From Nemertoderma westbladi (Eukaryota > Animalia > Xenacoelomorpha): a DNA stretch of 64,000 nt. The stretch spans positions 1 through 64,000 of the forward strand of contig JAUCBJ010007962.1 of the NCBI GenBank assembly GCA_032718475.1, in the 5' to 3' direction. Both the position numbers and the translations under genes were made by a program. The notes below the pieces were generated by a model. That model had not been told where the DNA came from and did not search any database. It was given only the letters and a program-made list of their open reading frames with translations. Below, piece by piece: positions 6,635 through 43,354 of the stretch. Numbering within the stretch: position 1 is the stretch's first letter; every line of letters starts with the position of its first letter.

Positions 6635-7221
6635 CAAACCAACGCGAGCGCTAAGGACTGACACAGACTCAAGTGATGAAGAGGAAGAAATGAGACGTCA
6701 GAAGTCCCGAAACTATAAGGAAAGAATGACCGACGCGGAGCAGGTAAGTTCAAATCCCCGGGAAAGGATCAGACTTAATAACCCTGCGGAACTAAACCAT
6801 TTGTTAACCCGGAACGACGCAACCCTTAGGGACATAGGTAAGTTTGCTGCTAGGCAAGGACTGCCGACGCAACAACCCCAGAAGTTTATGGGCAACCATA
6901 AACATTGGAGAACTTTCAAAACCTATGTCGACGAACAGCTAACCAACAGCACCTTTACTCCCAATGAGAAGTTCAACTATTTGCTTCAAATGCTCCATCG
7001 AGAACCTAGAGCCATTGCTGACAACTTCGTTGGCAATGAAAGAGCATTCGAGTTGGCAATGAAGACGCTTAGCGACATCTACGGGAATAAAACCAAGATG
7101 GCATAGTGGAAGACTTGGGTAAGGGCGGAAGGATTACAACTCCGTTAGAGCTGTTGAACTTAGCAAACGCGATTTCGAACGCATTAGACATCTTGAGGAC
7201 GGTGAATCTACCTCATCATGG
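6635..7221 (+). pseudogene. gag: Element A gag, capsid-like DUF1759-type segment
   Basis: KFMGNHKHWRTFKTYVDEQL...EKFNYLLQML...AMKTLSDIYG resembles the BEL/Pao gag core. Confidence 0.8.
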
Positions 7222-8461
7222 TGTAAAAGCTTCTGTGGGATATAACTGGCCCCTTTGCTTCGCAATCCAGTTTCCCCCCAGGCGCTGGAATACTCTAAAA
7301 GGTTCTCTAACTGTATATATATTCCCCTCGCCCGCAAGGTACCATTACAGGTATTTTAACAGACATAAAAGTCATTCTTCTATATACGTGCTTTGGCGGA
7401 CATGGTAAGGCAAAAAACCCGCAATGCACCAAATGCCTTTACACGGCTTGGCCTTGATGATTCAGATTGCGACATCTAGCAGCTGGTTGCTGGCATGGAA
7501 ACAGCCATTGGACGCATGGTTCTTTGTTTGGCTTGAGCCAATCAGAGCGATTTCTTCTGTCGACGTGTAGATATTCGGCCGATGATACTAGAAGTGTTCA
7601 GTCTTACTGTTTTTGTGATACTGTTGTGTTCCTTCTATCTAGGCCAGGAACACCGGCTCTAGAGTCAATTCGTTTCAGACTTTAGAAGAAACATTAGTAG
7701 GCTTAAGATTATAGAGCGTATAACTGTTATCAGTGCAACACGGCACATACATTGTCATATCATATCTTAACCTACCGTCTTAATGCTGTTTACTGTTGTG
7801 TTTTGATTGAATATTATTTGGAGAACATTTATAAAGAACCCAAATTTCCCAATTTTCTTGATACACTACAGGTTAGAGAGACGGGTTATATATAGCGATT
7901 GCGACTTATATTATTGTGGTTTGTAGTGAATTTAATGCTATTTGATAAGCACTACATGAGTCCGTTGCTGTTCTCTTTATATATGATAAAATTCATTGAC
8001 GGTCGGCAAATTAGTGAGCAGTATTGTGTTTTACCGGTAGTGTGCATGATTGTGACTGATAACTAAGCATTTTCTAAAGAATGCGCCTCATACGTGAATC
8101 ATAAGCCTTACCGACTTGCCGTTGTGATTAGTATAAGTCATATCTCTGTTTACCTAGATAGAGCGCCACGTCCTAAAGGAACTGTTAATATTTCCCGAAA
8201 GTGAATAATATTAGTCAGAAATTATTTATTAACGATCAATCGAATAATACAATAGGCTTACACTGCAATAATAATCTAAGCCCTCAGAATCCAGTCTCCC
8301 GGGTATATCCAGCGGGTGAATGGACGCGCACTAGGCTGGCTTCTGCTATTGTTGTGTTTATTGGTATTAAATATTTGTCAACTTCTAAAGTCTATTTATA
8401 AACCAAAAGACATATAAATTTTGGCAGGTTAAACTGCTAAAGGTCTTCAAAAGCGCGTACA
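7222..8461 (+). repeat. 5' LTR of element B
   Basis: TGTAAAAG...GCGTACA; about 10 substitutions versus the 3' LTR by manual comparison. Confidence 0.97.
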
Positions 8462-8472
8462 ATAACAGTTAT
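8462..8472 (+). promoter_or_regulatory. Putative self-priming primer-binding site of element B
   Basis: ATAACAGTTAT is the exact reverse complement of ATAACTGTTAT at 7720-7730; no TGG. Confidence 0.55.
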
Positions 8473-8519
8473 TGTCTTTATTGCAGTAAGCAATAAAGTT
8501 GAAAGTACCGGTCGACCGG

Positions 8520-8660
8520 TAAACCTGAACCGGTACTTCTGTAGGTCAGTAGGCCCAACTGCCAGAACCGGTACTGCCGTAGGTCCGTAGGTCCAACTGC
8601 CAGAACCGGTACTTCTGTAGGTCCGTAGGCCCAACTGTCCTAACCGGTACTTCCAGTATA
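8520..8660 (+). repeat. ~37-bp tandem repeat in the leader of B
   Basis: AACCGGTACTTCTGTAGGTCCGTAGGCCCAACTGCCAG-like unit, 3-4 copies. Confidence 0.85.
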
Positions 8661-9350: not shown

Positions 9351-10698
9351 GGTTTGTATTTTGTTTGAGTATTCTGTACGGGTAGCGTAATATTTATTAT
9401 TCAGAGTTTATGCGATTATTCGCAACATTCATGTCCCCAAGTTTATTCCTACAGTAATTGTGTTTGTTACACATACCGTTATAGTTAAATTAACCCCGGT
9501 ACTACACGAGCTGCTTGGCGTAGGAAAAGACTGGTGACTTTGTGCTTCGGTCACTCCAGCAGATGCCGTGGTTCTTTTAACTGTTCAAGTATATTTAACT
9601 ACTGATTATTTGTTGTACCAGTACTTGTACCTAATTTAGGGTTTAGTGTACAGTGCTTTCCGAGGTAATTAGTGTGTAGGCAGTATATTTGTGTTGTAAA
9701 GTGGTTAATAGGCACGCTGGATCTGGTAGTCCGCGGTAATTAACTTCTAGGTAGGAACACTCCGTGATACATAACGTAGTACCTATAGCGATACGGTTAT
9801 AGGTCGTCAGGCGGTGGTATTTTCCTATCTGGACAACGCAGTGTATTTACTACTACTTATTATTTTCAAATACCGTAGTACCCTGTCCGTTGTAATAACC
9901 AGAATTCTAACCCTTTGTTAGGCTGGTTTGTAGACTTCCTGTAAAATTACCCTAAAATTTCGTACGTAATATTTTTGTTGTGTTTAATTAGAGATTTAAT
10001 CTCACCCGTATCGTAAGTAATTTGTAGTATTAAGTAACTTAGGTAAATTAGAATTATCTGTTTTAGTGTCCCATAGGTAGCACTTCACTGAGAGCGCACA
10101 GCTTCTGTGTAGTGACTCCCCCAGAAATAATAACATTATTATTTCAAATATTGACAAAACCCCTTTTAAACGGGTATATATCTATTATAAATCAACTCAA
10201 ACGATTTATAAATAGTAGGCCTGCCATACAACAACTAGGTCTCAAAATCAGTTGGACTACTGCTTAAATAACGGTAACAAAGTAAGTTAAAGTAACCAAG
10301 TAACCCTAAAATATTCAGAAATTCAATTATTCTAAATTAATTGACATACCGGTATTTACCATAGGCTTCTTATATTTATTTCTATAAATTTGAGCTGAAA
10401 TCATACCGGTACTCTGTAATTAATTCTAGTCCATAATTATACTTATATATACTATCAGTGTAAGCTGTATACCGGTATTCACGATAGGCCTATTATATAT
10501 TTATATATATTTGTGCTAAAATTAGATACCGGTACTCTGTGACAAACCTAGTTTACAATACTTATATATACTATAAGTGTATACCGGTATTCTAATATAC
10601 TGTAATAAATTAACGGTACTAGGCCAACGGTCATACTGAATTACTAGACTTGCTTTAACTGAAACTATAGCAGTAGACATTCAACTGTATAGCTAAAC

Positions 10699-13600
10699 AT
10701 GTCTGACACTCAGCAAAACCTGTCAGACAGTCTAATCGATACAACCATCTGTGACACAGATAGGAGTGTGGAGCGATTAAGAAAGGAGTTCAGCTCACCT
10801 CCTACTGAAAGAAAGGTCATCCCTCCAGTAGTAGTATCAGACCCTAAGCTAATCCAACACCGTAGGTCTATCATCGGCACTCGGGCCCAAGTCAAACGGA
10901 ACCAGGAAGCAGCTGTCCCACAGCAGCAACAGCCTAGTCAAGAAACTTGTTCCCAGCGATCCGATAGCTCCAGTAGTTCGGATACTGTCGAGCTGACCCC
11001 CGAACGCGGATTGCAGATGGCGGCTACAGCCTACTCGGATCCCCTTCTCACCCTTCCTGCCGCAGTGCTAACTACTATATTGATTGCGGTGGAGGAACAT
11101 CAAGCTGATTGGGCGAGAAGTAAGCGAGCGACCCAAGATAATTATGCGGGATACGCCAGGGAAGAATTGATGTCTATTGTCGAGTCACAATGGAACTTTC
11201 CCGGACCCGGACTCCCGTTAGATTTGTCCGAGGCTACTTGGGAGGATATATACAGGATGGGAGTGACTAAAGATACAATGGACCCAGCTGTTTGGAAGAG
11301 GTCGGCAGCAGGATATGTGCAGGGATTCTTCGGCTCCTTGGAGCAATTGGAAGAACAACTGTTTCGACAACCCCTAGGACCTCAAGAGCAGGAAGAGCTG
11401 CTATATCAAGTACGCGAAAGAACCCTGCGCATTAGACTAATCCTATCAGCCTTTGAGGAAACTTCCAAAAGAAGACAGGACACGTCGCTGCAGGTTGCTG
11501 TCAAAACTTGGTTCCAGCGGGTAGGTCTCAAAGTACAAGAAACGGACCAGTGGAAATCCCAGCTGTCTGAGAGACTAACCTATGAAGAACCAACCGATGC
11601 CACCCTTTCTCAAGTGGAAGGCGAAGAGACCGCAGAGAGACCACGAACGAGAGACGCCATCGACATATATCTGTCCGACTATCAGCGATTCCTAGGAGAC
11701 GAAGAGTTGAGGAGACGGCTGTCTGGACTTTCCCCTAATAGTGAAGGAACCCAGCGTGTGTTAGACTCAATCGATGCTGAAATGTTAGCTGCTAACCAAG
11801 CTGAGTTTGATGAAAAACTCCGCCTCACTAGAGTCCAAGAAGAACTAGTAAAGAAAAAAAGGATAGAGGACCGAAAGGCAGCTGCAGTAACAGCGGCAAT
11901 GGCCGAAGTGGAAGCAGAAAGAAAGGCAGCGGCGGCAGAAGTAGAAGCAGAAAGAAAGGCAGCGGCGGCAGAAGTAGAAGCAGAAAGAAAGGCAGCGGCG
12001 GCAGAAGCAGAAGCAGAAAGAAAGGCAGCGGCGGCAGAAGCCGAAGCAGAAAGAAAAGCGACTGTGGCAGCAGCAAAGGCAGTGGCAGAAGCAGAACAGA
12101 GGGCGTCTGAAGAGACCACACAACTGGAGTTGGAAAATCTTCAAGAGACGCAAGATTGCATAAATAAACAGTTAACTGCTAGTCAAATGCAGATGAGGAG
12201 TCGATCTACTCCCAAACGCCAGGGATACACCTCATCAGAGGAAAGCGAAACCACCGATCCTGAAGGCGGAGGAAATAGATCTCGTCTAAGCAGGCGTAGA
12301 AAAACATCTCACCATCACAAATTGCCTGATTTGCCCCCAGCGGTTAGAAGACAACTAGCTAGCCCAGACTTAGGTAGTATAGAACCTACAGACCAAATTA
12401 TTAAGGTCAAAAGACTCCCTACAATAGTCGATGAGCCTGAAATAATTGGGCCTGTCGTTCCCAAAGCCACTACTGTGCTAGAGACCCCTGTACTTCCAGA
12501 GCTTAACTCTAAATTCCCTTTACACAGGACTACACTGCCTGTACCCGGTAGAACAGTCCATGAGAATATCCCTGTCCTGGAAGCTGAGAGAGAAATCAAA
12601 GATTTGTCTCCCGTCGTCCCGCGTCAGCCCGCTACAATGTTGGCGACTCCCGCTTCGGCGGTCGAGTGGGTAGAGGAGGGACGGCGGGGGATGAATCTCC
12701 TGCTCGGACAGATGCAGGAGACTGTCCACCAGCTTAAGGGAACAGTAAGGGAAGGTAGGGCAGAATTGCAAGAAGTGCAGCAAAGTATCGCACTGGAACG
12801 CGACAAATTAGTCAATATACAAAAGGGCATACCAATACCCCCTGTAACATTGTGTCAACCTGTTAGGTCTGAAGTATTACATGCGCAAGGTGTGGAGCCT
12901 ACATGCATCTATACTGCTAGTGAAGTGGAAACTCCTATAGCAAACCCTATTAAGGGTGATTATAGACCTGTTGTTAATGATATTCCCTATAGACCTGATA
13001 ATGATCCGAGAAATTTATATACCGATAATTCGATATTAAATAACACGATGGCCCAAGAAAGCTTTACGCGTCAGATGGCTAGAACAGAAGCCCGCCAAGC
13101 GGTCAAAGTGGGAGAGATCGTCAAATTCAATGGAGATGAGATGAAATGGTTACCTTTCAACGAATATTACAAAGACAGCATACAGAACTCTGTGCTATCT
13201 AACGGAGAGAAACTTAGGTTCCTCATCAAGTGCTTGGAAGGACCTCCCAAGTTAATGGCGTTAAAGTTTATTGGACATCCAGAAGGATTATGACAAGTTT
13301 GGGATACATTAAACATCAGGTATGGTAACAAGGATAACATAGCTAAGTATTTGTATGCAAAATTAGTAGCCCCCCGAAACTTCCTTAGTAGCGGTATTAT
13401 AGAGTTTTCCGATGAGATTCAGGAGATCTGTAGACAATTGGACTGGTTAGGTAAGTCTCATGAATATCAGAGTTCCATGGTTATTGGAGCAGTAGTCTCT
13501 ACTTTACCAAAGGGTGGAGTATGTACACGTTGGGACAAGAAAGTGTTGTATATGAATGAGCAGCAACGACGAAGCCCTACCATGGCTGATCTCATGTCCT

Positions 13601-15390
13601 TCTTAGATAGTGAAGTAAAATTACAACTCATAAAGCAGTCCAGAGAGAAAACATCGGAAAATAAGGTAAGTGAGAAACCCGTTTCTAGGAGAAGGATAAT
13701 ACCAGTGTGTTATACTGACGACGGCGAAAGCCAAGCTTCTCAAGAAGAGGACAGCGGGAAAGACACAGCAAAATCTTACTATGACAACAAGACCTATAAA
13801 GACGTAAGTAAATACAAGTCTCGAACCAGTGACAGGAGAGAACAGGTAACAACAACTCCTCCTACGTCTCCTAAGAGAATTTACGGAAGAAAGCCCGAAG
13901 AAAGAACGAGAGTGCATAACGTTACCCAAGGTAAGGTGAGTAACATCAAACCAAAATGTGCGCTGTGCGACGGGCCCCACCGTTTGAGTGCGTGTGCTGA
14001 ATTTCTGAAGAAATCCCTTGTAGACAGACGTACAGTCCTGTGGAATAAGCGGTTATGCTATAATTGCCTCAGATCAGGACACCAACGGCGAACCTGTTAC
14101 TCCGACGTAAAGTGTGCAAAGTGTGGCGCGAAACATCACATCTTGTTACACAGTGAGTTCGAACGAAACAACCCGAGTCAGGTAAGTGAGCCCGAACTAC
14201 ATGTCCAATTCAGTGATGTAAATGACACTGATCAAGAGTCTGAGATGGAAGGATTCTATACTGACGAATTCTCCGACGCCAACGAATCCTGTTACCTAAT
14301 AAATACCTCAGTGTATCGAGCACTTACTTATGAAAAGGACACCGACAATGAGTTCCCCCCAACTACTTTTGCCAGACAACCATCTTGGAAAGCTCCAACT
14401 TCCAATGTAGGAATCAGAGAATTTCCTGTAGTGCAGGTAAGAGTTCATGGTCCTAACAAAAGTTACATAGTGAACGCCCTCCTTGACTCCGGCAGCACAG
14501 GAAAATTCATCGATCAAGAACTAGCCGAAGATATCTTTGCTGGACAACCCAAATTCCGGACTAAATTGAATATGTCAGGAATTATGCAGGTTTGGAAATC
14601 TACCCTAACGGCAGACTACTATGTAGGTGTGTTGTCCACCCCCCAGGATAAATTAGGAGCACAAGGTATAAGGTCGGTAAAAATGGTGGCTATAAAGAAC
14701 TTCGCTACTACCCAAGCAGACCTTTATAATTGGGACGAGGATGAGAGCATCCAACATCTTAAGATACCTCGATTCCAGACAGATTATCCTGGAGTGCAAA
14801 TACTCATCGGCCAAAACGCGCATGAGGCGCTCGAGACATTGGAGAAACGGCCTACTCAACCGCAGCCACTACAAACCTATGCGGTAAGAACTAGAGTAGG
14901 TTGGTACTTCACTGGCCCTTCCCGTAGAACTCTCAAAGAGAGATTACCTCAACAACAGGTATACCAAGTAAAGGAATGGGAAGTGGAGAGCAGTGATGTG
15001 GACGATCCAACTGAGGGAACACCATACTCCTCAGATAATGACGATATTAACTCCAATGTAGATCAATGGAGACATTGTCTTGGGACGATTAATCCAGCCG
15101 ACATCGCTTCCAGAGGAGCAACTCCTCAAGAACTGATAGATAATCCAGGCTGGTTAGGTGGATCCTACTTCTTAAGTAAAGAAGAAGGAGAATGGCCTCC
15201 TCATCTTACCCCGGTGAAGATTAGACAGGCCAAGGGAGCGGAGAAAGTAACACAACAACTAAATCGCCCAGCTAGTCGTTTATGTTTACTGGAAAGAGAC
15301 CGAAAACTGTCCGGAAACTATGGAAGGCAAGATACTCTTCCTACGACCACTTCCCTAATCCGACAAATATCTAGGGACTCCATAACGTAA
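10699..15390 (+). pseudogene. gag-pol: Element B gag-protease fused in frame to RNase H tail and integrase C-terminal remnants; one in-frame TGA at 13291-13293
   Basis: DUF1759-like KFNGDEMKWLPF; three knuckles CALCDGPHRLSAC, CYNCLRSGHQRRTC, CAKCGAKHHILLH; protease ALLDSGS; QWRHCLGTINPADIASRG; NRPASRLCLLE; no YxDD and no DDE. Confidence 0.9.
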
Positions 15391-17021
15391 TAACATATGG
15401 AGTGGGCGTGTGACTATATCATTTTATATTTGTTTTTATTTTATATTTATGTATGTATTATTATGTAATTTTATTATAATCGTTTCCTTTAATTTTATTT
15501 AGTAGAATGTTATTTTAGTGATTATTTAGTAAATTAGTGCAATATATTAGTGTTTATTACGTACGTAATTACTTATAATATATATTTAGTGCGACGGCGA
15601 GAAAATAATTATTTTTCTATTTCCTTACTGTCCGTATCATATTATAAATAGGTGACTACAGTAAGATGAAATGTCCGTACTTATTAAAGTACAATAAAGC
15701 CACTACTATATTCAAGTATTATTGGTAGGCAGAGTATTAGGAATGCAAAGTTCAGATCCTCGTGTCTCGGCTAAACCAAGCTCTAGGTAGACCTTGGAAA
15801 CGACTTGCCTCTTCACACTGACATTGCTTCGTGCGATATTGCTCTTCTACCTTATATTAAATAATACATATAGTAGCGTGATGTCCCTATAACAGTAGCG
15901 TAAAACGCAAATAAATCTGTTAAACTTTTTGACCATCTGTAATTCTAGTCGATTAAGATATCGTGGCACCCACCGATATACTTGAAAGACAAATTCTAGA
16001 ATCAGTGGTTAACGTCCCCAGACAAGTTCTGGAATAAATCGGTGCCTATCTTAAATATTAATTTAATATTTATTAAAATCTGTAAAATTCAGATCCTTTA
16101 AAATTTCTAGTCAATTAAGATATCGCAGCACTTACCGATACTCTTAAAAGACAATTTTCATAGAATTAAGGATCCTATGTCCCCAGACCTGCTCTGGAAT
16201 CAAATTGTGTCAATTTTAACATCAAATAATAAAATTCACGGGAATAAATTTAAATTCATATTTTAAATGAATTTCATAAATTGTCATTTTGTGCAATTTA
16301 TAACATTCCCAAAATTCCATTAATTAATAGATCATGGGAGCGGAGATTCATCCTATTGAGTGTATTAGAGTGCGAGAATCTCCAACATATAGTCAATAGC
16401 CGATAAAATTAATAAAATCATGCATAAAGAGGATATTGACAATTAAAGAATTATTATTAAATAGCATCCCAGATCTGTATGCATGAGAATTACCCTAATT
16501 CTACCGCTAGCATTCCATAATGTCACCATAGCAACACCCACGCTAGAATCAGAAGCAAGTTAAGAGAACAATAGAAAGCTTGTCCCATTGCATAGCATAG
16601 AGAATACATAGCACACTGTTAGTATCCAAGGATACACAGTAATAACGTGACATTCTGGAATGCACTGACTAACGGACAAATGGCCTGTATGTGTACAATT
16701 GGTGACAGTTGTGTGGAATTTGTGCGTTTATAGGTGAATGTTACTGCTAAAGTATGTTTACAGTAGCTAGTCGCAATTGTGAAAGTAGCCCAACTCTCCT
16801 ATAGAAAGAACCTCAAGTGGATTCAAGCCTTTGGGACGGACAGTGGAGTGACTTGTGCCGGTTATCGTTGTCGTGCTGTTGCTACATGTTGGCGTAAATA
16901 CCGCGACGACAGTACATCGGCGCTGAGAATCCCACTGTCCGGGGGCAAAGAGAGGTAGGCAGCGACGCCCGCTCGCCTAAACATAAACTCATTACAATAT
17001 TAATAAACTCAGATAGCAGAT

Positions 17022-18470
17022 ATGACGGAGTTGATAGAAGATGATCTTGGTATCAGGGAGCGATATACTCTACCTTTACAAGCATTTGTGGATAGCTTGA
17101 TACGCGATGAAGCCGATCCAACCATTACGGAGGACGATGGTCGTTATATCGAACCGCCGATGTCCCAAGAGCAACTTACGCGTGAATTGGACTATCGAAA
17201 ATTCACCGCTCGCTATACGCATCGTAATGGTACATATATGGACTTCCTAACTACCGGCCATCCTATCGATTTACATGATACGGACGATGTAGACACCGAA
17301 AGGGAAATGGTTCTATTTAAATATCATACCCAGCGGAGTCGTAACGATAAACCGAAAATAGATCACGAAAATTCTATTCGTAACAGACTGGGAAGACGAA
17401 CCAATATGCCTAGAATCTGAGGAGATTCAGCCTATCGCGCCCGGAACAGCGACAACGATTACATCCTAGAATGGTATCAAGGTCCACAGTGTCTCACTGC
17501 GTACGATTATCGCCATGCCAACTATGTTTCTCGGCAACGTTGTCGGTTATGCGCATCGAGAGACCATGTTACGCCCATGGACACAAACGTCCGCTGTTCC
17601 TATTTCCACGAACAACCGGCGATGGAAATTTATTGCGCGTATTGCAGACTCAATAACTTGCACATTTTTGCGGTTTGCCCTCAATTTATGACTCAATGGC
17701 ACCATGGTCAACTAAAGGGACGCGCCAGTTTCGATTGCCCTTTTTAATCACGATTTGGAAAGCGTAGATGAAATGATCACACTACGTTACATCAGAGCTT
17801 GGGAAGCGAACGCTGATTTACATTGTGATTCGCGCCATCGTTATTATCCTGGACGCGCTTACGAAGGAGTTTATGCGTTCCATCCTTATCTATTCGCTTC
17901 TGTCGAACAGAAATCACGCATATCGAGTTACGAACTACTGAAGTGCGTCGGAGAATGTATTTCAACCAAGTTCGTACGCAAATTCTCAGGAGTGTTAATC
18001 CCAGCGACCTTCATTCCTATAGCTTAATCAATTATATCCGTCAGGACCCGGACTATGGAGACTTATTTGTTAACTCACACCCCGAGTTACAGGAAGTATA
18101 TCGACGGCCTTATGAATACCGAGCCTGCGAACGCGAGTTGGAAAGAACCATTAAACCCCGGAGGTTTCTAACTGCCTATGGTCCACCCACGGCTCTCGTT
18201 CAGACCACTCGTAAAGGACCCGTAAGAGCGGCTGTCTTGAAACGAGCTCTCAAAGCCGTTAGACCCCTCTCCCCCGACGTTGATGTCAATCAACCCGGTA
18301 CTTCGACTGGCGGATACACCGACCATAATCCTACACCCTCTGATGCAATCATATTGCACCCTTCACCCAGGAGTTATAGCCCTCCTTGTAAAGTGGCTCG
18401 CCCCAAAGAGAAAAGGACTCTGGCTAGCTTTAAAAAACTGCGTAAACGCCGTCCGCGCAAGAAAGACTAA
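17022..18470 (+). pseudogene. Extra 3' ORF of element B (triple Zn knuckle, WExxADxH domain, basic C-terminus), disrupted
   Basis: Reading through TGA at 17418-17420 gives CRLCASRDH..., CAYCRLNNLHIFAVC and a degenerate third knuckle; after a frameshift, RAWEANADLHCDSRHRYYPGRAYEGVYAFHP; ends KKLRKRRPRKKD. Confidence 0.75.
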
Positions 18471-18540: not shown

Positions 18541-18548
18541 GGGAGCGG
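18541..18548 (+). promoter_or_regulatory. Polypurine tract of element B
   Basis: GGGAGCGG directly before the 3' LTR TGT. Confidence 0.8.
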
Positions 18549-19788
18549 TGTAAAAGCTTCTGTGGGATATAACTGGCCCCTTTGCTTCGCAATCCAGTTT
18601 CTCCCCAGGCGCTGGAATACTCTAAAAGGTTCTCTAACTGTATATATATTCCCCTCGCCCGCAAGGTACCATTACAGGTATTTTAACGGACATAAAAGTC
18701 ATTCTTCTATATACGTGCTTTGGCGGACATGGTAAGGCAAAAAACCCGCAATGCACCAAATGCCTTTACACGGCTTGGCCTTGATGATTCAGATTGCGAC
18801 ATCTAGCAGCTGGTTGCTGGCATGGAAACAGCCATTGGACGCATGGTTCTTTGTTTGGCTTGAGCCAATCAGAGCGATTTCTTCTGTCGACGTGTAGATA
18901 TTCGGCCGATGATACTAGGAGTGTTCAGTCTTACTGTTTTTGTGATACTGTTGTGTTCCTTCTATCTAGGCCAGGAACACCGGCTCTAGAGTCAATTCGT
19001 TTCAGACTTTAGAAGAAACATTAGTAGGCTTAAGATTATAGAGCATATAACTGTTATCAGTGCAACACGGCACATACATTGTCATATCATATCTTAACCT
19101 ACCGTCTTAATGCTGTTTACTGTTGTGTTTTGATTGAATATTATTTGGAGAACATTTATAAAGAACCCAAATTTCCCAATTTTCTTGATACACTACAGGT
19201 TAGAGAGATGGGTTATATATAGCGATTGCGACTTATATTATTGTGGTTTGTAGTGAATTTAATGCTATTTGATAAGCACTACATGAGTCCGTTGCTGTTC
19301 TCTTTATATATGATAAAATTCATTGACGGTCGGCAAATTAGTGAGCAGTATTATGTTTTACCGGTAGTGTGCATGATTGTGACTGATAACTAAGCATTTT
19401 CTAAAGAATGCGCCTCATACGTGAATCATAAGCCTTACCGACTTGCCGTTGTGATTAGTATAAGTCATATCTCTGTTTACCTAGATAGAGCGCCACGTCC
19501 TAAAGGAACTGTTAATATTTCCCGAAAGTGAATAATATTAGTCAGAAATTATTTATTAACGATCAATCGAATAATACAATAGGCTTACACTGCAATAATA
19601 ATCTAAGCCCTCAGAATCCAGTCTCCCGGGTATATCCAGCAGGTGAATGGACGCGCACTAGGCTGGCTTCTGCTAATGTTGTGTTTATTGGTATTAAATA
19701 TTTGTCAACTTCTAAAGTCTATTTATAAACCAAAAGACATATAAATTTTGGCATGTTAAACTGCTAAAGGTCTTCAAAAGCGCATACA
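18549..19788 (+). repeat. 3' LTR of element B
   Basis: Copy of 7222-8461, followed by TSD CATGG. Confidence 0.97.
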
Positions 19789-19793
19789 CATGG

Positions 19794-22700
19794 TGATCAC
19801 GCCGAAGTTTTGAAAAGCGTAATAAGACGTTTAAACATGCGTTACCGACAGAAATGGCGCAAATTAGAGAATAAGTTGGAAGGTCAAGGTAAAGTATTGA
19901 CACTTCAACACATTCATGACATGATAGCCATAGACGCATTAGCAGAGATGAAGTCAAACTTCTCAGAGGAGAATATGAGGGAGTCTAAGCCTGTTACTGG
20001 TAAGTCAATGGTAAGTTTTGACGATGACAGGACCACTGTGACTTTTAACTCAGTAGACAGATATGATTCGAGTACCCCAGCCTTTAGATCAGACTCGCGA
20101 GTATGGTCAGGTGAGCGGTTAGATAGACCTAGGTTAAAGCAACAGGAGTTGCCGGATGGATTTGTAGGTTGCCAATTCTGCTTGCTAAAAGAGGTAAGAT
20201 CTGATGACAATAAGTTGGACAGTTGCAGACGGTTTCAAAGAATTAAATTCGGAACAGAGAAGAGTTCAAGTGCGGACGTTGGACACCTGTTGGGCATGTC
20301 TTGCGCCAGGCCATGTACGGCGGCAGTGCCCGAACAGCAAGGATGGATGCATGGAATGCGGCAGACTACATCACAAGTTGCTACATGCGGATTTCCATAC
20401 CCCAACGGACCGTTACTTACAGAGAAATCCTCAAAGGAAGGGGAGCAAAGAACCCGTATCGATAAGAAGAAATACGTATACTGGCATCCAGGACGATGGT
20501 TATCAACCAGGTTCGTCGGACGAGGATGGCGAGGCGAGCGCGAGAGAAGTGACCTGCCAAGGTTTCACCGCGGATAGTTCATCGACCAGCGCACGGACGT
20601 ATTTATCATCGGCCACGTCGGAAATATTTAGCATGATTCCGGTGAAACTTACTGGGGATAAGGGATCGAAGAGAATATATGTGATGTTGGACACTGCGTC
20701 CACATTATCATATATCGACGAGGAAGTGGCGAGAGCCGTTTCTAGCTTCCAGGACGCCGAGGAAATCCAAATAGAGTTAAACTCCATGCACGGGGTAGGG
20801 GACCTCAAGGGACACAGAATTTCGGTAGAACTAGATTCCCTACTTCCGAGAGACCAACATACTCGACAAGAACGGAGAGCTTTGCCATTAGATGGATTCA
20901 AGTGTCTAGCTATGAAGGGGTTCGGCAGGCAGTTAGGTAAGGTGCCGCCGATGAGTCCCATAGCACAGGAGTATTTTGACAAGCTCAAAGTACCGAGACA
21001 CCAGGTAGGTTATAGGAATGTTTCTATGTTGATTGGTGCAGAACAGCTGATCGCACACCAAATATGGGAAACGAGACCAGCTGAGCCGCATGTCAATGGA
21101 CCACATGCCTATAGGACTATATTAGGTTGGTATACAAGAGTACCCATGTCTTATGAGTTTACAGGTGGCGACAAGCCAATAGATAGATAGGACGGATTAC
21201 AGCCTATAACTGAACCACCGTTAGTAGAACCACCAGACATAGACGAGTTTAGGAGAACCTGTATTGACCATTATAGTGACGTTAGCGAGTCGGACGAGGA
21301 GTTGATTCCCGATAATGTTAGGTTGTCGGAACCACTTCATAACGACCGGACAGATAGTGAACCCGAGGACTACTGTTATCAGACCCGTGGGTCTGGTTCA
21401 GCGGCCCACGCTACCTATTTGAGTAACATTTTGACTTATACCGACATAGTGGAGGGTCAAGTGGCTAAATATCGAGACCTCGACATTTTCCAATACAGTG
21501 AGGAGGAATTGCAGAAGGAATTGATACGCCAGGACCTCGAGACAGGAGCTAGAACCGTCGAAAGGCTGGATAGGGACGCAATGGAACCCGGTGGGTATGA
21601 CCTAACCATGTCCACTGATGAGAAACGGTCGCTGGAGATGATGGAAGATACCATACGTCTGCTACCGACAGGACATTTTGAAGTTGGAATGTTGTGGCGT
21701 CGACAACCACCTAAGTTGGAGAACAACTACAGCTTAGCCTTGAAAAGATTGGACGGAGTAAGGGCTCGGTTGTTAAGGAATCCAGACATTAGGGAGAAGT
21801 GTTGCGCCCAGATCAACAACTATTTCGCCAAGGGATTTGCTGGGAAGGTAGAGGACCCTGACTTAGTGACAGACCAGACATATTACCTCCCACACCACTA
21901 TATGACTCACCCTGACAAACCTGATAAAGTCCGAGTGGTCAACGACTGCGCAGCAGTTTACAGAGGTATGTCCCTGAATTCAGAGTTGATGGATGGACCC
22001 AACCTGAATAACTATTTGATCGGAATACTGTTACGTTTTAGACAGCGGCGATTCGCGTTTACTTGCGACATCGAGGCGATGTTCCACCAGGTAAGAGCCT
22101 GTAAGGCAGACCAGGATAGCCTTCGATTTCTCTGGTTCGAGAATGAAGACTTATCCGGCCCGGTGGTTACATACCAGATGTACGTTAGGATATTTGGTGC
22201 CCGCGATAGTCCGAATGGCACGCTGTTTGTTCTAAAGAAAACGGCAACAGCCCAGATTGGTAAGTATCCAGTAGAGGTGATCGAGTCTATATTGAGAAAC
22301 TTCTATATGGACGACGGATTGGTGTCCAAGGACACGGCAGAACAAGCCATAGAAGTGGCTCACGGCCTACAGGAGTGCTTGGCTACAGGGGGTTTTCCTC
22401 TAACCAAGTTCACTACAAACTCGGAGGCTCTATTAGAGTCGTTCCCGGTGAAAGATCACGGGAGCGGAGACATAGAATTGGGGGTAGAACCCATCCCCAT
22501 GGCGCGAGTACTGGGACTCGCTTGGAACCCGAACACGGACAAGTTCCAGGTAAGAGTTAGATTTGAGCCCAGTAGTCCAGACAAAGTTTTGACAAAGAGA
22601 ATTTGCTTATCGACATTAAGTAGACTATTTGACCCGATGAACTTTATCAGTCCGGTAATATTACAGGCACGAGCGTGCATGAGGAAAATTTGGTTGTCCG

Positions 22701-25271
22701 ACTTAGAGTGGGACGAACCAATATCTCCTATACATGCAAAGCAGTGGAGAGAGTGGGAAGTCGAGTTGCATCTATTGAAAAATATAGATGTACCCTGTTC
22801 CTACTTTCCGAATCAGCTGGTATTCCCAGCTGATCTCGAACTCCATTTATTTAGTGACGCAAGTGACACCGGCTTTGGTATGGTAGCCTACCTTCGCCGA
22901 GAGGTAAGTCAGGATAAGTTTGAGACGGCTTTTGTGACTTCTACATCAAAGACAATGCCGGTCAAATACATGACTGTCCCTCATGCAGAGTTACAGGCGG
23001 CAGTAGTTTCAGTCGAGGTAAGTAAGCAGATAACAAAGGAGTTAGACACGACATTGACCTTATTCTATTGGACGGACGCATCCTTAGTGTTAGTATACAT
23101 TGCAGCTGACAATATTGCACTAAAGACATTTGTGGCCAACAGACGCGCTCAGATCGTCGACTTTTCGACGAAGGAACAATGGAGACATTGTCCGGGAGTG
23201 TTGAACCCGGCCGACATAACTTCGAGAGGTGCAATGCCAGCGGAATTCTGTCAGGAAGAGTCTCAGGAGTTTTGGTTGCATGGACCTGATTTTCTGATGA
23301 GGACACAGGAACATTGGCCAGAGTGACTGAAGATAGTGACCAATCCGATGCCCGAAGATGCAGAAGTCAAAGTGGAGAAAGTCTCTAAGTCAAAGTCTAA
23401 AGCCAAACTCAAGTCATTGGAGCAGCCTGAAGAGTCATTGGAGCAGCCTGAAGAGTCATTGGAGTGGCCCGGAGACCTGTCAGACCTACAGACTTACGTG
23501 ACTACTAGGTCCGGAAGGGTAAGTTATGACATAAAACCACCCTTACAGACTAAACCAGAGTCACAGTTGGTAAGTGACGGACAGAAAATGACCGACACAA
23601 TGGAGCCTTTGGTTTCCAAACCTGCGGGTTTGGATTCGAAACTTCCATTAGTTAGCGGACAACCGTCGCTGGCATTAGAGTCATGCAGTGTTTATGACAA
23701 ATTACTAAATTCGTCTGCCTCTTGGCTGACAATTTGTAAAAGAACTGCGTGGTTAAGCCGATACGTTTCGTACCTTTGTTTAAAACATTTGAAACATTTA
23801 GGAGAACAATTGAGCACTAATATTGAGCGAATTCGGAAATTGAAACAACCTCTGACAGAGGATGAGATTGATCAAGCGGAATTAAAGCATTTGAAGTACT
23901 ATAAAATGTGTGCCTTCCCAAAAGAATTCTATCTATTGTTGGCTCAACAACCAGTTCTCTCCTTAGAAAATGGAGTCCATTAATCCATAAGGGTTTGATT
24001 TGTCATAGATCAAGAATCCAGACTGTCGACATAAACTCACAGTTTAGGTTCCCAGTGATAATCCCTAGTCACCCAATAGAATTGCAAAGAGCGATTCTAT
24101 GGGATATACACAAGAGGTTGCATCACGCGGGAAAGTTACACTGTTTGTCGACAGCGAGACAGCGATTCATTCTATTGCAGCCAAGCAGGGCAGTAGGCAC
24201 TATGTACGATGCCTGTCTGGTTTGCAAGAGGGTGAACGCCAGAGTATTGGAACAGGAGATGGCTGAACTCCCGGAAGCGAGAGTGCAGGCATATGACCCA
24301 CCTTTTACAAATACAGGGGTGGATTGTTTTGGTCCGATTGAGGCAAAGAGTGGATGGCTGACCCACAAGCGATGGGGCCTGCTACTGACATGCATGGCTA
24401 GTAGAGCCATACATATCGAGCGTGTGGCAGACATGTCGACCAAATCTCTGCTCCTGGCCTTAAAGAGATTTATGGCCAGGAGAGGACTAGTACAGGCGTT
24501 TTACTCTGACAAGGGTACAAACTTTGTCGGAGGGAATAGCGAGTTAAATGCGGCTCACAAAGCAGCGCAGAATAAAGAAATTTCTGCAGCACTTTTGCCG
24601 CAAAGAATAGAGTGGAGATTTAATACTCCAGAAAGTCCTTGGAGAGGAGGAAGTTGGGAGCGTTTGGTTCGCTCTGTAAAGCAGGCTATTGCCAAGACGT
24701 TGCCTGTGAACAAACAACTTACCAACGATGAACTGGTCATAGCTTTCATCGAAATCGAGCATACCCTAAACTCGAGGCCGATAGCTATGTTGCCAGACGG
24801 TGTTGCATTAACGCCGAATCATTTGCTAATGCAGAGTCCAGCATTTCTTCTGCCGGCATCAGAACCCATTAGTGCCGACCTATATAGTCGTAAGAGCTGG
24901 AAAGTAACACAATTTTAGCGTACACATTCTGGGAATATTGGCGGGAATATTATCTTCCCACCATATCCACCAGAACAAAGTGGTACAAAACGGTTCGGAG
25001 CCTCCAAAGAGGAGACTACGTATTGATAACCGAACCGATTATCAAGAGAAAATATTGGGAGACGGGAGTTATCTTGCACATACACCCAGGCGTGCAAAAC
25101 ATAGTGCGCACAGTCACTGTGAAAATTAGGTGCAAGTGTCCGCACCCAAAGAAGTGTAAAACTAATGGTTTGCACACCTTGGACCGACCGGTCCAAGATA
25201 TCGTGTTATTAGAGGAGACACGCATCGAGACGGGAGATTATAATTTGTCTCCTGCCTCAAAACAGAATTAG
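19794..25271 (+). pseudogene. pol: Element A gag C-terminus (Zn knuckles) and pol: protease, RT, RNase H, integrase; several stops and frameshifts
   Basis: CWACLAPGHVRRQC; VMLDTAS; YYLPHH, DIEAMFHQV, RNFYMDD; LFSDAS; HHCC and DDE integrase motifs; DUF5641-like tail DRPVQDIVLLE. Confidence 0.95.
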
Positions 25272-26025
25272 TGTTGGACGCAACTCACTTCGTATGCATT
25301 CCTCGTATGCAAATACAAGGAAATGCATAGGAGCGGGTTTGTGGTGATTTGCGTTGAGTTTTGTCTGGTGGGTATCAAAAACAAAATTTTATTTTCAAAA
25401 GTTTTGGAAAATTAAAAAATTTTCAAAAATTAGAAATGAACCCAAGACAATTCCAGACGCTGTGTATAGACGCGTTTTGAATTCGTCTATAGATATACAG
25501 TAATTTGAAAAGTCGTGAAGCCTGGAAAATAGCATTTAGAAACCATGGTGACGGCTATATTACGTAGGAGTGTAAATTGAGTTTAGCAACTTCTACAGAT
25601 TGGTGCCAACAGTACAACTAGGGTGCTAAAGGTTAGTAGCATCAGAGGCGTACACGACCCCACTCAGTAGTTTGCAGTGAAGTGTGATGTTCGATATCAA
25701 ACCTGTGGGTTTGGTATAGTCGAGCATTGAGACTATTGTCCTTTCTAACTACTGTAGTTTATTACGAGTAATGGGAGTAGTTTGGGCATCAAAAAAGTGA
25801 GTTGGTCACGGCCAGTTTATCTCCAAACTTTTGCGCTATGCATGGGAATAGGTTAGAGGATAGTTAGGAAGAGACGGGATCTAGAGAGTCGAACCTGAAC
25901 TGCTGGAAGGCGGGGGGGTTCGGGAGGTCTGTCCTTCGGCGGCATCTAACTGATTTATCCGCAGTGTAATTAGTTACGTAACGGAACACTTATTGGGATA
26001 TATATATGTGTATACGCAGATTATA

Positions 26026-29000
26026 ATGGAGAAGGGAATTAGAGCCCAACCGCGGAGAGGATTTACCGCTAGAGAGGAGGCGGAGCTACCATTTGCCCAA
26101 CCGGGATGTAAAGATTCGAACGTTTACTACCACGGGAGGTCGGTAATGGAGCTAAATGGGAAGTATAAACCCTCATATGATAAGGAATTAAGGAGGGAAA
26201 GAATGAGAGCGTTGGGGGACCGTATGGAAGTTTTGCGGAAGGAGTATCGCACTCGGTATCCTTACGATTTTGCGTTAGACGTATGTGACATTAGTGCAGA
26301 CCCGGACGAGGAGATTGCGCGGCTGTACCATATGAACATGTATTTTCGACACGACGAACCTCTACCTGCAGTCCGAGATCAGTTCGACGGAATGCATCTT
26401 TACCGGAGGACTCGAGGCGAGGATCAAGAGACGCCGAAGATCTTCAGTATGTACAAGTTGTTCTATAAATTTGGTGAATGCATGAACAAACAAGACGTGG
26501 CGATTCCCGACCGACTGGACGAGCAACATCCTGAACCGATATTAACGCGATGTCAAGCTCACCAGTTCCTTAGATACAACGAGGGAGGTTACCCAATGAG
26601 CAACCCGATGATTAGTATCGACTTTAGCGGAAAGCAACCTCCAAGACCCATTACGCCGACCGTTACGACATTAGATCCATATACAGAGATTAAACCCTGT
26701 TCGACACCCAGTTTGATAGAGATGGCAGCGGCCATTTCGCTATACCGAGCCTACAAGGATGTAGAGGCGCGGCGCGAAGCGGCACGGGACTCGGGTACCA
26801 AACCCGCGGGTTTGGAGCTCTCGAGTCCCTGGACTACGTTTACTTCGCCTCACTGAGCGAGAAGCCTCACGCCTGAGCATCAGGACGACATAGACGCATT
26901 GCGGCAGGAGGAGTGAGCGGCGAAGGCGAAACAGTTATTCGAAGAGCGGGTGGCGGAGTATAATAAGACCGCGGATAGACATCAGGAGGAGACTAGGAGA
27001 GTGACTGGATTTGTTCCACAGGCCGTATCTCAACCCCGACCGGTGTATTATTCCGACGGCAACGAACCTGCGATATTGGTAGATCACCCGGAGTCGCGAG
27101 AAGCGATTAGATTCTTGCCGATGGTAAGGATGTTGGATCATTGGAACGTCGACTGTCTACGGGAAGTTTTATGCGCGAAGTTCTTGCGTGTTCCCGATGC
27201 AGATCACAGATTACGACACAATGGATTAGATTGGAGCTCCGGGGAAGGAGAGTAAATTATTCGGATGGTTGGATAAGTACATCAAGGTATGGGTCGCGGT
27301 GGCTACATTCCCAGACGACGAGGAGGTAGACCAGACGTGGCTGAGGAGGAAGGGTTCTTACACCTGATATGATGACCACAAGGCTATCGAGCGCATGTGG
27401 ACCCCATCAGACGAGATTCAGCATCAGTGGAGGAAAACGGAGGAATCACTGCAGGATTGGAGGGTGATGTTCTACGACAATGAAGGAGGGTCTCATCAAG
27501 AATGCTTGACTAGTAAGTGCATTCAAATTCGCGCGGCCGATGGTGTGACTCATGTGTTTATGCGCGTAAGGGCGGATCGAGAGAAACCGGAGCCCATAAT
27601 AACGACACAATATCGGAAAGGGAAGGATCCTAGGGAACAGATTTTGGAGGTATGCAGGCGAGGAGGTATGCACGGAGCGGAGCGTATCGACGCCAGGATG
27701 CTACCCAAGAAGGTTAGAGAGGCTATTCTTAACCAAGATTACGTCAAGGTGGGATCGGGAGTCCAGAGTGATTTAGAGAGTGACTTCAACGCCATGACTG
27801 ATTTGGAAGATAGATTGCCGATACCGTTTGTCGACACCAAGCTATTGTTGCTATGGGCACAGGATATTGGAATTTATAGGGAGTATCCCAACTCTGCCAA
27901 GACTGGTATGGGCTTCATAGCGCATTTGTTGTATAATTGGGACTTTAAGTTGAAGACGCAGAAGAAGTACGAGGAGGTGTATGGCGAATACAACATGCCA
28001 CCGGGAGCGGAGTTCAAATCCCACTTCAAGCGGCAAGCGTTAGTGTATTGGAACATTTGCGCGCGACCCCGTGCGTCACTACAATATTATTTGGTGCTTG
28101 AGTCGAACACGGTAACTTGTTTATTAGCGGATATCGTTGCGCGAGTTTTGAAGCGTCATCCATTGGTGTTTGGAGGAGATCAATACGTTCGCTCGAAAGG
28201 AGGAATCCAATCCGACGTGATGAAGCGTTTCTTAACCCCGTTCTTCAACCAATCGTTAGAGAATACGTCGATGGTTAGGAGAGGATTAGCGATATTCGAA
28301 GGAATATATCGACAGAACATCGGAGATTTGGGAGACCGACCGTCAATGGAATATCCGACGCCAGAGGCTTTGGAGAACTGGTTCGGGAATCAAACCCGCG
28401 GGTTTGGTACTCCCTTCCACTCGGAGGCTGATAGACCTATTAGAGAGGGTTGGCCGGAAACGTTAGTAGAGGTGTTTGGAGTGGATCTTCCGGTGGAGAA
28501 GACATATCCGAAACGAACGCGGGAGGAAATATTGGAGATAGAGGACAAGGGCGAGGATGTTTACGTTGTTCCGGATCGACAACCTTTGACCGGAGAGGAC
28601 GACATCGTATTAGACATTGGGAAAGAAGGAAGTGCGAAACCGATTGGAGACCTCATATATGAGAGGGCCTGGTTTCCGCAAGCGCGTAGGTGCAAGTTGT
28701 GCAGCAGCACAAGGCACAATCAAAAGTTATGTGACGCGGTAGTAGAGGCGGCGCATAAGGTCTGCCGTTGGTGCAATGAGACCGACCATTCGTTTCATAC
28801 GTGCACCGACTTCATTTCTCAATGTGGATATTGTGGAGTAAAGGGACATCGTAGCGCGAGATGCCAAATGCGAGATGATTCCTTTCAAAACCATAGCGCT
28901 AACCTACTTCGGGAGATGCTAGATAAGTGGGAAGGTGTGGCCGACTACCACATCCAAGCACAGATGCGTTGGTTACGATTTAAGAGGGGATATGGATTTT

Positions 29001-29710
29001 GGGCAGTAGACCCATCACACGTTGCGTATGAGCCGTATCTGCAGTCGTTACCACAATATCAAGAGCTCATCCTGACCGCTCAAGACCTTCCACAGAACAC
29101 TGGAGTCATCGTTGTTCGGGAATACTTCAGACAATTGAACATGGATAACAAATACACTTGGAACTTTGTTGCTATTTGCAACCGTATTACAAAGGGTGTA
29201 TTTTCGGAAACTAGAAAGGTGGTGCGCGCGAGAGGAGATTGGAGGATGGCGGCTATACAATACCGCAACGAGTTCCTATTGACTCACGTACCGGTGGGGT
29301 CATTGACCGCTAAGAGGATCGAGGAACAGAGAACCGCAGCGCCCACAGCGACGACTGTTGGAGCTCAAAGCTCACGGAAGGAACCAGGAGGAGAGGTCCA
29401 AGACAAGCGTCAAGTCAAGGACGACCACTACCATTCGATTATAGAAGCACAGGGAGCGTTGGAGAAGGCGCGGGTGCAACTGCAGAAGGAGGAGTTGGCG
29501 GAAGCGACCACAGGAGCACGATTGGGACGAGGCCGAGGGAGAAGTACGAGCCGGGAATCTGTCGGGGCTCAGGGAACATCGTCACCGGTTCCAGGGAGTG
29601 ACGCCTCGCGGACAACATCAACAGAGTCGACTACTGGAGGAAGATTGGTGTATCTGGGAAGGGGGCGGAAGAGAGGAGCGAGCCCAAAGAACCCAGGAGC
29701 GGGTCGGTAA
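26026..29710 (+). pseudogene. Large extra 3' ORF of element A (~1200 codons; triple CCHC knuckle, WExxADxH domain, RG-rich tail), disrupted in the 5' third
   Basis: ORF pieces 25993-26856 and 26950-27255 (same frame) plus 27395-29710; CKLCSSTRHNQKLC, CRWCNETDHSFHTC, CGYCGVKGHRSARC, KWEGVADYH...GYGFWAVDP. Confidence 0.8.
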
Positions 29711-30232: not shown

Positions 30233-32452
30233 TGTTACGGTATATTATGGCGCTGTACTTACATTAGTCCGCATTATACAGTATAATAATATTAGTCCGT
30301 TATACAGTATAATATATTAGCCATTATGCAGTATAATATATTAGTCGTTATGCAATATAGTTATTTAGATAAGACATAATAATGCGCAATGACATTTAGA
30401 TAAGGAAAATGAAACGCCCATATATTTTGAATTCATCCATTTTGTATAGTATGTAGCCCTACCTATGTAATTTTGTATTAGGATATAAGTAGATAGTTCC
30501 AGGGTAGCAAGTTCCTGTTGGACCCTGGATGTGGGCTTGCTGTTATTAGCCTTGATGGGCTAGCTATTGGTTTTAATTTTCTCTATAATTGCGCTAAATT
30601 AACTTTTGTGCATCGTATTAATAGTACCGCTAAATTAAGCACCGGCAAATTTACCTTATATGGTGACGATTTGAGGGTTTCGGGAGCAATAGGTTCACGA
30701 TCCGGCTTTCTTATTGGCCTAACTGCTTCCAGGTTGGTCTAATGCTAGCTCGGATTGGGGAGCCAATGAGAGAGCGATTGCATAATCCCTCATGAACCAC
30801 CTATAAATTGGCCGTGTTTCCGGTAAATGTAATCATCTTTGTTGTACACTATGTGCTTTGTAATTAATCTCAGTGCTTTCTTTATAATTCTGCATTTCTA
30901 CCTCTTTTCGATTTTTTCTTACGATGATTCGCTAATTTGACTATTTCTGCTTGTGTTTCTCAATCAACCTCAATGATTACTATAAATTACAATTGGAACT
31001 ATGATTTCTACCCTTTAGTAAATGGTTCTATGTGATTCTTTTCGACACAATAATCCTACGGGATTCCTTAGACTGTCAGACTGTTTGGTAATTTGAATGC
31101 GCCACTACGGTACCTATTCATTCTGATGGAGAGCTAAGTTACCGGTAAGCGCGGCGGGCGCATCGGGGGGTTAGCGACGAAGGGAGTGTGGAGGATTCAA
31201 GGGCGGGCAGTGCTGGCGAGAGCACTATTGCGGCTAGAAGTTCGCGGTATAGAGGAACCCAGGTTCGCCGGAACGGTAACTAGGGGGCTGATAATCCAGA
31301 TTTTGTCTCTATTTGTAGTATTAGGGGGGCAGGAATTGGGTTAGTTAGGAAGCTCCAGATGTATCCGGGAGAGACCTGCGTGCCTTACAATCGTGAGCTA
31401 AACTGTAAACTATTGTTTGTTGAATCGTGAGCTAAACTGTAAACTATTGTTTGTTGAAACGTGAGCTAAACTGTAAACTATTGTTTGTTGAATCGTGAGC
31501 TAAACTGTAAACTATTGCTTGTTACGCTGATTGGTGTGTTACTAAAGTGTGCCTAATAAATCACGAATGCTTAGATAGGTGCTCTTTTCCCTTTGATTGA
31601 TTTCTATTTCTTAGTTTATGACGAATAGTTACTGATTAGGTCGAAAAATAATACAGTATTTTAGGCTCTTACTGGTGCTACCAGTTGTGCGATAAATTAG
31701 AATTGCGCATTCTGGAATACTTAGTAATTAGTACGCTGTACATATTTGTGACTGTAATTAACTAGTAAAATTAAGAATTTTGTACGCAGCATAGCGGAGA
31801 GTAGTTAAGGTAGGATTTGGAGTACCGTAACTATTCATGCAGGGCGGTTATTTGAATTAGAGGACGATAAGTTACATTGTAGTATACAGTATTTAGCGCG
31901 CATTAGTAAATTGCTGGCCTAAAGCCAGCCGCAGGTAAGTCTAGTCCCACTACAGGTATTAGCCGTAATAAAACAGTCCCGATTTTGATTACTTAAATAT
32001 TCTCACATTCACACATTCCGTTAGGGAATCCCAGTCTTTGCGATTAGATGCGATTAGATCAGATTAGATTAGAAAAGACATAATTGTTCACGTGTTTAGC
32101 AGTAAATTAGGCCATAGGAATACACTCAGAGTGCAAGTCTCTCGCACTCGTTTTAAGTAGCTTAGGGAACCGATTTCGGGTTTATTGTTTTGGTTATTCC
32201 CGCTTGGCTCATATATTCGAACAGTTAGCTCTCTATCGAGTAATTGGTAGAGAAAGGAACAAGAAATTAGCAGGAGCTGTATAAAATTAGTAAATATATC
32301 AGCGGACGGCAGATTAGCGCCATCCAACGGTAAGTAGCAGCGGTTTTGGATTTAGCAACCCTACATTACAAATAATACGCTCCTGATTGCCCTGCTTAAT
32401 AAATAGAGCAATTTGTGTCTTTATTGGTTGGGTCGGGGTAGTTTGTTTAACA
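30233..32452 (+). repeat. 3' LTR of element A (2220 bp)
   Basis: TGTTA...TAACA termini; has one more 33-bp unit and a ~150-bp segment (~31835-31985) missing from the 5' LTR. Confidence 0.93.
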
Positions 32453-32635
32453 CCAACCATTTCTAGTATTGATTCATACAGCATGTCTAATGTCCTAAGT
32501 CTAGAGAATGTAATGTAATGTAAGGTAAGTACAGTAGGCAGATGATACGGAAGCCCATAGTATCAAACAGTAGTGGAATAATCAACTACTGTATCATATT
32601 TTCTGTCACAAAGTTCTCAATATATTACACAAAAC

Positions 32636-32983
32636 TCACAACCAGTAGATTTTTGCGATATTTATGCGCCATGACGCTTGAAAGTCGCAAGTGAATCGCA
32701 TGTGAGTTTTATGCGACTGAACGCAAGTTGTTGCGATATCTATGCGACTTAACGCAAGTAGGTCGCTTGCGTAAAGGTCGGGCCATAACTCTTGGGAATC
32801 ACATAAGATACGCCTGCGTTGCACGCTTGCGATACGCTTGCGCACTTTCACTGGGTAGTATCCCCTCGTCTTCTCTTCCGGATGCCTCTCGGTGAAATCC
32901 ACCAGTATCTCCTTTCCTCCTAACTCCGCCTTTCTCTTTCGGACAAGTTTCTCTGCCATTTCGAACTCTCCACAATCGCTCAC
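32636..32983 (-). CDS. Possible start of an extra 3' ORF of element C (duplicate at 34667-34957); unknown function
   Basis: Charged, protein-like ORF downstream of pol in C's sense orientation; no motif recognised. Confidence 0.35.
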   Translation of the reverse strand: MSDCGEFEMAEKLVRKRKAELGGKEILVDFTERHPEEKTRGYYPVKVRKRIASVQRRRILCDSQELWPDLYASDLLALSRIDIATTCVQSHKTHMRFTCDFQASWRINIAKIYWL

Positions 32984-33359
32984 CCGTTAGGTGGTGCCTT
33001 GCCACGGCGCGGTATGGATGAGTGATAAAGTAAAGATGGTTTATTCAGTTCGAAAATGGCCTATCTCTCGCAGAATTTCTGAGTTATTACCTAATTTTGC
33101 CACCTAATTCCTAAAACTGTCAAATTGTACCCTAAATTGAATAAATTAAAAATACGCTATTTTATTTTTAATTTAATCCTACTACTGTGCTACTACTTCT
33201 GCCAATGGATTATTCTACCTTATAATCCACATTCTGGCCTACTCTGTGGGCTTGTGCAGTACAACAGTATGCGTCGCGTGGCCTACACGATTTATCCAGC
33301 TGTACTCACGTGCCCCCCTCTCTCTACTCACTACTAACTAATATTTATATTATACATAC

Positions 33360-43270: not shown

Positions 43271-43354
43271 TCTTTAGTCTCTATTTCTGGTCGGTGGCAG
43301 TCAGTTAGAGTTTGGGTATTTTATCGCTTAGGGCAACTACTCGGATCTTAACAC

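Follow-up and report, generated by a model that had tools for sequence, protein, structure and literature searches.

How an LTR retrotransposon that lacks a tRNA site could prime its minus strand is the question raised by element B, which lies together with the related elements A and C in the 64,000-nt stretch of Nemertoderma westbladi DNA analysed here (the window). Bel/Pao elements are usually described as tRNA-primed, and Cer7 of C. elegans encodes a tRNA-like primer of its own close to the 3′ end, an arrangement that differs from the LTR segment of B. No tRNA genes were found by ARAGORN within the 64-kb window. Our analysis suggests that self-priming of B in some form is highly likely, and that B rather probably primes minus-strand synthesis with an internal piece of its own RNA (7720–7730) instead of a tRNA.

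Element B is an insertion into the gag of element A and shows the hallmarks of an LTR retrotransposon, i.e. a TG...CA LTR pair, a short (5-bp) TSD and a polypurine tract (PPT). Self-comparison of the window gave two LTRs of 1240 bp each, beginning with TGT and ending with ACA (7222–8461 and 18549–19788; all B features on the plus strand), which differ by 10 substitutions, none of them in the 11-mer at 7720–7730 or its second copy at 19047–19057. The TSD copies, CATGG, are located at 7217–7221 and 19789–19793. The LTR end at 8461 is therefore set by the second LTR and the TSD and is independent of any pairing, as the initial annotation had stated. The PBS position, ATAACAGTTAT (8462–8472), follows with zero spacer and without TGG; the absence of this triplet, likewise claimed before, holds for the 29 nt directly after the 5′ LTR. 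At the opposite end, the PPT GGGAGCGG (18541–18548) abuts the 3′ LTR, its counterpart in A being GGAGCGG at the equivalent position.

The gag-protease frame of B (10693–15390, with one in-frame stop at 13291–13293) contains zinc knuckles and an aspartic protease motif and is 25 % identical to that of A (E 2e-20), while its match to DUF1759 (PF03564; E 9.5e-5) reaches 22.9 bits and thus stays below the Pfam cut-off of 25.4. RT and integrase are absent, with just a remnant (15052–15198) resembling the end of the RT-RNase H frame of A (48 % over ~50 aa), too little for the RT of B to be placed. Lacking RT and integrase, B is a non-autonomous Bel/Pao LTR retrotransposon. Membership of the Tf1/sushi group was considered and rejected, as the proteins are of the Bel/Pao type rather than of the Ty3/gypsy chromovirus pol type. 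Broken extra 3′ frames at 17007–18470 (+) encode Cys/His motifs and a basic tail and weakly resemble the zinc-knuckle region in the extra ORF of A (E 0.01). Across the elements of the window, the features of Bel/Pao (Belpaoviridae) comprise a DUF1759 gag, zinc knuckles, a protease, a Pao-type RNase H, the integrase in last position, TG...CA LTRs and a 5-bp TSD.

Positions 8462–8472 are the exact reverse complement of 7720–7730, the complementarity ending at 11 nt, which bears out the zero-spacer pairing proposed from the initial inspection. An anchored match of at least 11 nt was obtained in 5/5000 dinucleotide shuffles of the B LTR and at 33 of 40,736 arbitrary window positions (0.08 %). The caveat that the 11-mer is nearly palindromic is real, so that the two sites double as a 10/11 direct repeat; the duplex energies were −10.1 kcal/mol for primer:PBS, −5.0 kcal/mol for PBS:PBS and −5.5 kcal/mol for primer:primer. 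In a folding model of 7600–8560 or 7720–8560, the B helix had a probability of 0.0, in contrast to 0.63–0.95 for the corresponding helix of A, and forcing it cost 7.8 kcal/mol. This predicted failure of the helix to form is the main result against the self-priming reading. A loose U5:leader duplex around the B PBS was calculated at −19.7 kcal/mol, a value that stands without a shuffle control.

The same geometry is found in the neighbouring elements. The 5′ LTR of A, whose start lies upstream of the window, extends to 1845, and the PBS position of A (1846–1856) is the exact complement of the predicted self-primer segment at 964–974 (all on the plus strand), an 11-nt pairing seen in 2/5000 shuffles. 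On the minus strand, the PBS position of C (43344–43354) follows an LTR end at 43355 that is presumed, the second C LTR being absent from the window, and its 9-nt complement (43558–43566) lies 203 nt inside the presumed LTR (13/5000 shuffles of the last 500 nt). The primer/PBS sequences of A, B and C are mutually unrelated, those of A and C are non-palindromic, and all three elements are intron-less. The initial annotation had also described the LTRs of A and B as dissimilar. This stood insofar as BLAST gave no significant match (best E 0.097). A stretch chosen by eye around a CCAAT motif common to both LTRs aligned better than any of 500 shuffles, so that a faint promoter likeness between the two may remain.

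Both A and C have DUF1759, Pao RNase H (PF05380) and integrase zinc finger (PF17921) domains in the order of Bel/Pao. The pol of A is in pieces (21191–24918, +), with RT and Pao RNase H followed by the integrase zinc finger, and its 3′ LTR lies at 30233–32452 (+). Its RT matches Bel/Pao proteins of cnidarians, molluscs, echinoderms, fish, a tunicate and a trematode at ~33–41 % identity; no named Bel/Pao subclade reference (Sinbad, Suzu, Sailor or others) was among these matches.

Several further observations concern A and its surroundings. In the leader of A (1870–2080, +), the LTR-end/PBS junction is repeated several times, and the copy after 1880 retains a 10-nt pairing with the LTR segment, i.e. 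these may be spare or decoy primer sites. An extra ORF of 780 aa without Pfam hit precedes the 3′ LTR (27368–29710, +); its residues 1–330 resemble 3′–5′ exonuclease clusters (language-model score 0.91; PF01612 on 50 % of the members), which is no more than a lead. Another extra ORF (25954–26856) gave no useful match among solved structures. A ~2-kb tandem duplication at 32235–36170 includes the last 218 nt of the 3′ LTR of A as well as a 44-nt tandem array in the flanking DNA, and 57400–64000 is occupied by a complex satellite-like array with units of ~450–500 nt.

Element B belongs to an abundant family (14,053 variant contigs in one public run), which allowed variation at the paired segment to be assessed. 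In three public runs, no substitution at ≥2 % was listed in 7675–7735, and 7720–7730 therefore does not vary freely, contrary to what the initial annotation had named as evidence against a functional pairing. The listing may miss variants, since a difference between B's own LTRs at 7718 is unlisted, and because the conserved block is ~60 nt wide, the 11-mer is not singled out by it. Eight substitutions and nine listed indels fall within 7733–7751 in the same runs. The B-family LTR is hypervariable at 7735–7751, just past the 11-mer and four further bases, whereas the preceding 60 nt are conserved. In the first read mapping, none of the 40 variants seen out of 264 affected either B 11-mer, so that these 40 hold no compensatory change for the B family, and none of the nine LTR joints listed for the family deletes the 11-mer. 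Among the rows listed, the B 11-mer had no loose end suggestive of an intron and no GT-AG joint, nor was there an intron-bearing B copy. One public run, presumed to be RNA, had zero coverage at 7614–7725 and is uninformative either way.

Relatives from other genomes provided an independent view of the geometry. Aligning the RT-RNase H of A with 31 of 120 listed matches led to 80 metagenome and 13 genome loci; in 20 of these 93 loci a second copy defines where the LTR ends, and these form a controlled test set, which includes the near-copy pairs L002/L004, L034/L052 and L083/L084. A contiguous match of at least 9 nt at zero offset was present in only 2/20 relatives. Instead, the LTRs of the relatives contain predicted GT-AG introns whose removal yields the complement of the PBS. 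When splice sites were called without regard to the PBS, under strict splice rules, 12/20 relatives pair over 10–15 nt across the junction, compared with 1/358 swapped PBS and 0/300 downstream-sequence controls at ≥10 nt. Under a relaxed acceptor rule, 17/20 pair over at least 10 nt (15 across a predicted GT-AG junction and 2 contiguously), with ~1 % in the controls (4/358 swapped PBS and 3/300 downstream). L034, L066 and L091 failed the strict splice filter and passed the relaxed one, while three loci failed both, i.e. L054, which has a TGG-type site, L006, whose pairing is seen by eye and only with a G-U pair, and L055, whose LTR end is doubtful. Shifting the junction mostly destroyed the match, and several shifted junctions still matched because of bases repeated across the junction.

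The repetition of the pairing in A, C and 17/20 relatives, each with its own sequence, supports the earlier proposal that the geometry rather than the sequence is shared, and also that the pairing of B is functional. Evidence in the same direction comes from the near-copies L083 and L084, in which three exon-1 bases differ and the three matching PBS bases differ likewise, so that both sides have changed together. Further loci with a spliced pairing, 2300–3300 nt before the RT match, emerged from a scan of all 93 loci, which had no control of its own, controls covering only the 20-locus tests, and gave spurious hits in coding regions and inverted repeats. Among 31 loci chosen from the scan results, 28 different PBS 11-mers were found, too varied for one tRNA, and 28/31 start with GT or AT. 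No relatives were found among viral contigs in the scans. Thirteen Bel/Pao contigs (L081–L093) are assigned to bacterial MAGs in the GTDB set and look like animal host contamination.

One family occurs both with and without the intron. L076 carries a 536-nt GT-AG intron (L076:137–672), whereas its sister L079, 99 % identical, has a 3′ LTR from which precisely this intron, GT to AG, is missing, so that the 11-nt match is uninterrupted as in B. In L079 (6691–7103), the 5′ LTR has the 3′ end of the intron, while the 3′ LTR is intron-less, with a second exon that is 88 % identical. The L079 contig may therefore be a mosaic of two copies, but even so a molecule with the joined form exists. An intron loss resembling that of L076/L079 may lie in the ancestry of element B. 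In all six complete intron-bearing elements, the donor is kept in both LTRs.

The two ends of the elements also correspond in their spacing. Where PPT and LTR adjoin without a gap, the PBS gap is likewise zero (4/4 loci from two families), and a PPT gap of 2–4 nt goes with a PBS offset of 1–4 at 17/18 loci (one offset set by eye), L039 being the exception; A and B have a zero gap at both ends. Such an approximate mirroring of the PBS gap by the PPT gap is expected if synthesis begins at the first paired base.

In a FastTree tree, A and C are joined on long branches, 42 % and 35 % from their nearest rows, i.e. the relatives are distant. The group around them mixes spliced and TGG rows, with L054 and L071, which retain a TGG-type site, in the same part of the tree. 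The tree, which holds no named Bel/Pao references, can neither order these events nor count intron losses.

Self-priming as such is described for other elements. According to the available text of two sources (PMC7175516, PMC4600332), Tf1/Tf2 of Schizosaccharomyces pombe, Tj1 and the Tf1/sushi group are self-primed, with an 11-nt PBS complementary to their own LTR RNA. Like these, B has no tRNA site and an 11-nt PBS that adjoins the 5′ LTR and is complementary to its own LTR. Tf1/sushi elements are, however, Ty3/gypsy chromoviruses, whereas B is a Bel/Pao element without its own RT or RNase H; B probably works like Tf1 yet falls outside the Tf1/sushi group. Self-priming has also been predicted, as far as the consulted part of PMC6317226 states, for the Tcn1 clade (Ty3/gypsy) and the TAR lineage (Ty1/copia; Houba, Osr-1), where, as for B, it was inferred from PBS/LTR complementarity outside Tf1. 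Those elements belong to other superfamilies and hosts (fungi, plants), and an intron-built primer is not mentioned in that part of the source.

Based on these data, the following route can be proposed for B. Transcription would start upstream of the paired segment, probably near 7600, as suggested by the positions of a CCAAT motif at 7538 and an initiator-like TCAGT at 7598 (candidate promoter 7538–7602, +), so that 7720–7730 would lie ~120–130 nt into the RNA. This segment would then anneal to 8462–8472, probably with the help of Gag, which is proposed because the folding model does not form the helix unaided; the helix would need Gag chaperoning, pairing between two RNAs or partial removal of the 731-nt loop. 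A cut right after 7730, made by RNase H by analogy with Tf1, would free a 3′-OH facing 8461. Judging from the gene content of B, RT and RNase H would be supplied in trans by an intact Bel/Pao partner; because B itself lacks both, this predicts that the partner's enzyme cuts a duplex differing from its own sequence. The resulting strong-stop DNA would span 8461 back to ~7731 and would then transfer to the 3′ LTR. The corresponding segment is split by a predicted intron in most relatives, where splicing would assemble the primer. Since an intron is heritable only from an unspliced copy, either the 3′ LTR would stay unspliced or a separate spliced RNA would prime in trans.

A stricter likeness to Tf1, in which transcription of B starts at 7720 and the 11-mer forms the first 11 nt of the RNA, with the upstream block as core promoter, agrees with the pairing of exactly 11 nt at zero spacer, as in Tf1 (PMC7175516, in the part available). 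The conserved block, extending from ~45 nt before to a few nt after the 11-mer, has the span of a core promoter, and it could indeed be a core promoter around 7720. Nevertheless, we consider this version unlikely. No TATA-like motif occurs 25–45 nt upstream in B, A or C, nor within 300 nt in B, and among the TATA-like hits in 27 relatives 1/12 lies at 25–45 nt before the donor, while the CCAAT and initiator-like motifs of B are found 120–180 nt upstream. Moreover, the intron-bearing relatives would require a first exon of 3–10 nt, which is why, judged from the sequences, the paired segment of B is probably internal to the RNA rather than its 5′ end.

It is also conceivable that the pairing is real but structural, shielding or presenting the PBS or joining RNA dimers, with a host RNA, e.g. 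a piece of a tRNA, as the primer. Half-tRNA priming is known in Ty1/copia lineages, as the consulted part of PMC6317226 describes, but a host primer of this kind fits poorly with so many different PBS 11-mers in the relatives, each matching its own LTR, or with a register whose start lies 0–4 nt away from the LTR end and varies with the PPT gap; we regard it as quite improbable. That the match in B alone reflects chance or a duplicated AT-rich palindrome, e.g. a protein-binding site, with priming by another route, is very improbable, since the near-palindromic sequence, its 10/11 direct identity and the weak duplex that did not form in the folding model are outweighed by a frequency of ~1 in 1000 by shuffling, a sole asymmetric central base that is the complementary one, the same register in A, C and the 17 relatives, with non-palindromic sites in A and C, and the lack of any other primer site in B.

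Priming of B by an internal segment of its own RNA may thus be part of a broader pattern. On balance, the evidence leans slightly towards a wide animal Bel/Pao lineage in which tRNA priming has been dropped and a stretch within the element's own LTR RNA provides the primer, put together by splicing in the ancestral state. Of the two LTR copies, the 5′ one would be spliced and the 3′ one would keep and transmit the intron, and B, A and C would have fixed the spliced form via intron loss. A term look-up in the main texts of the Sinbad paper and a metazoan BEL/Pao survey (PMC554778, PMC3118150), as far as these were available, returned no text on tRNA or priming, and the consulted parts of PMC3601003, PMC8220671, PMC13524379, PMC5443660 and PMC3286476 hold nothing on Bel/Pao self-priming. 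Judged by titles and the opening of abstracts, no paper on Bel/Pao self-priming or a splice-built primer was found; earlier remarks could be held by Frame et al. 2001, Butler et al. 2001, Lin and Levin 1997, Repbase, GyDB or supplements.

If true, Bel/Pao would be the third LTR superfamily that primes without a tRNA, and the primer would shift from the 5′ end of the RNA to an internal, often splice-built, site. Host splicing would thereby be linked to reverse transcription, which raises the question of how one LTR copy alone gets spliced. Such a mode of priming could also explain those Bel/Pao elements for which tRNA-based annotation yields no PBS.
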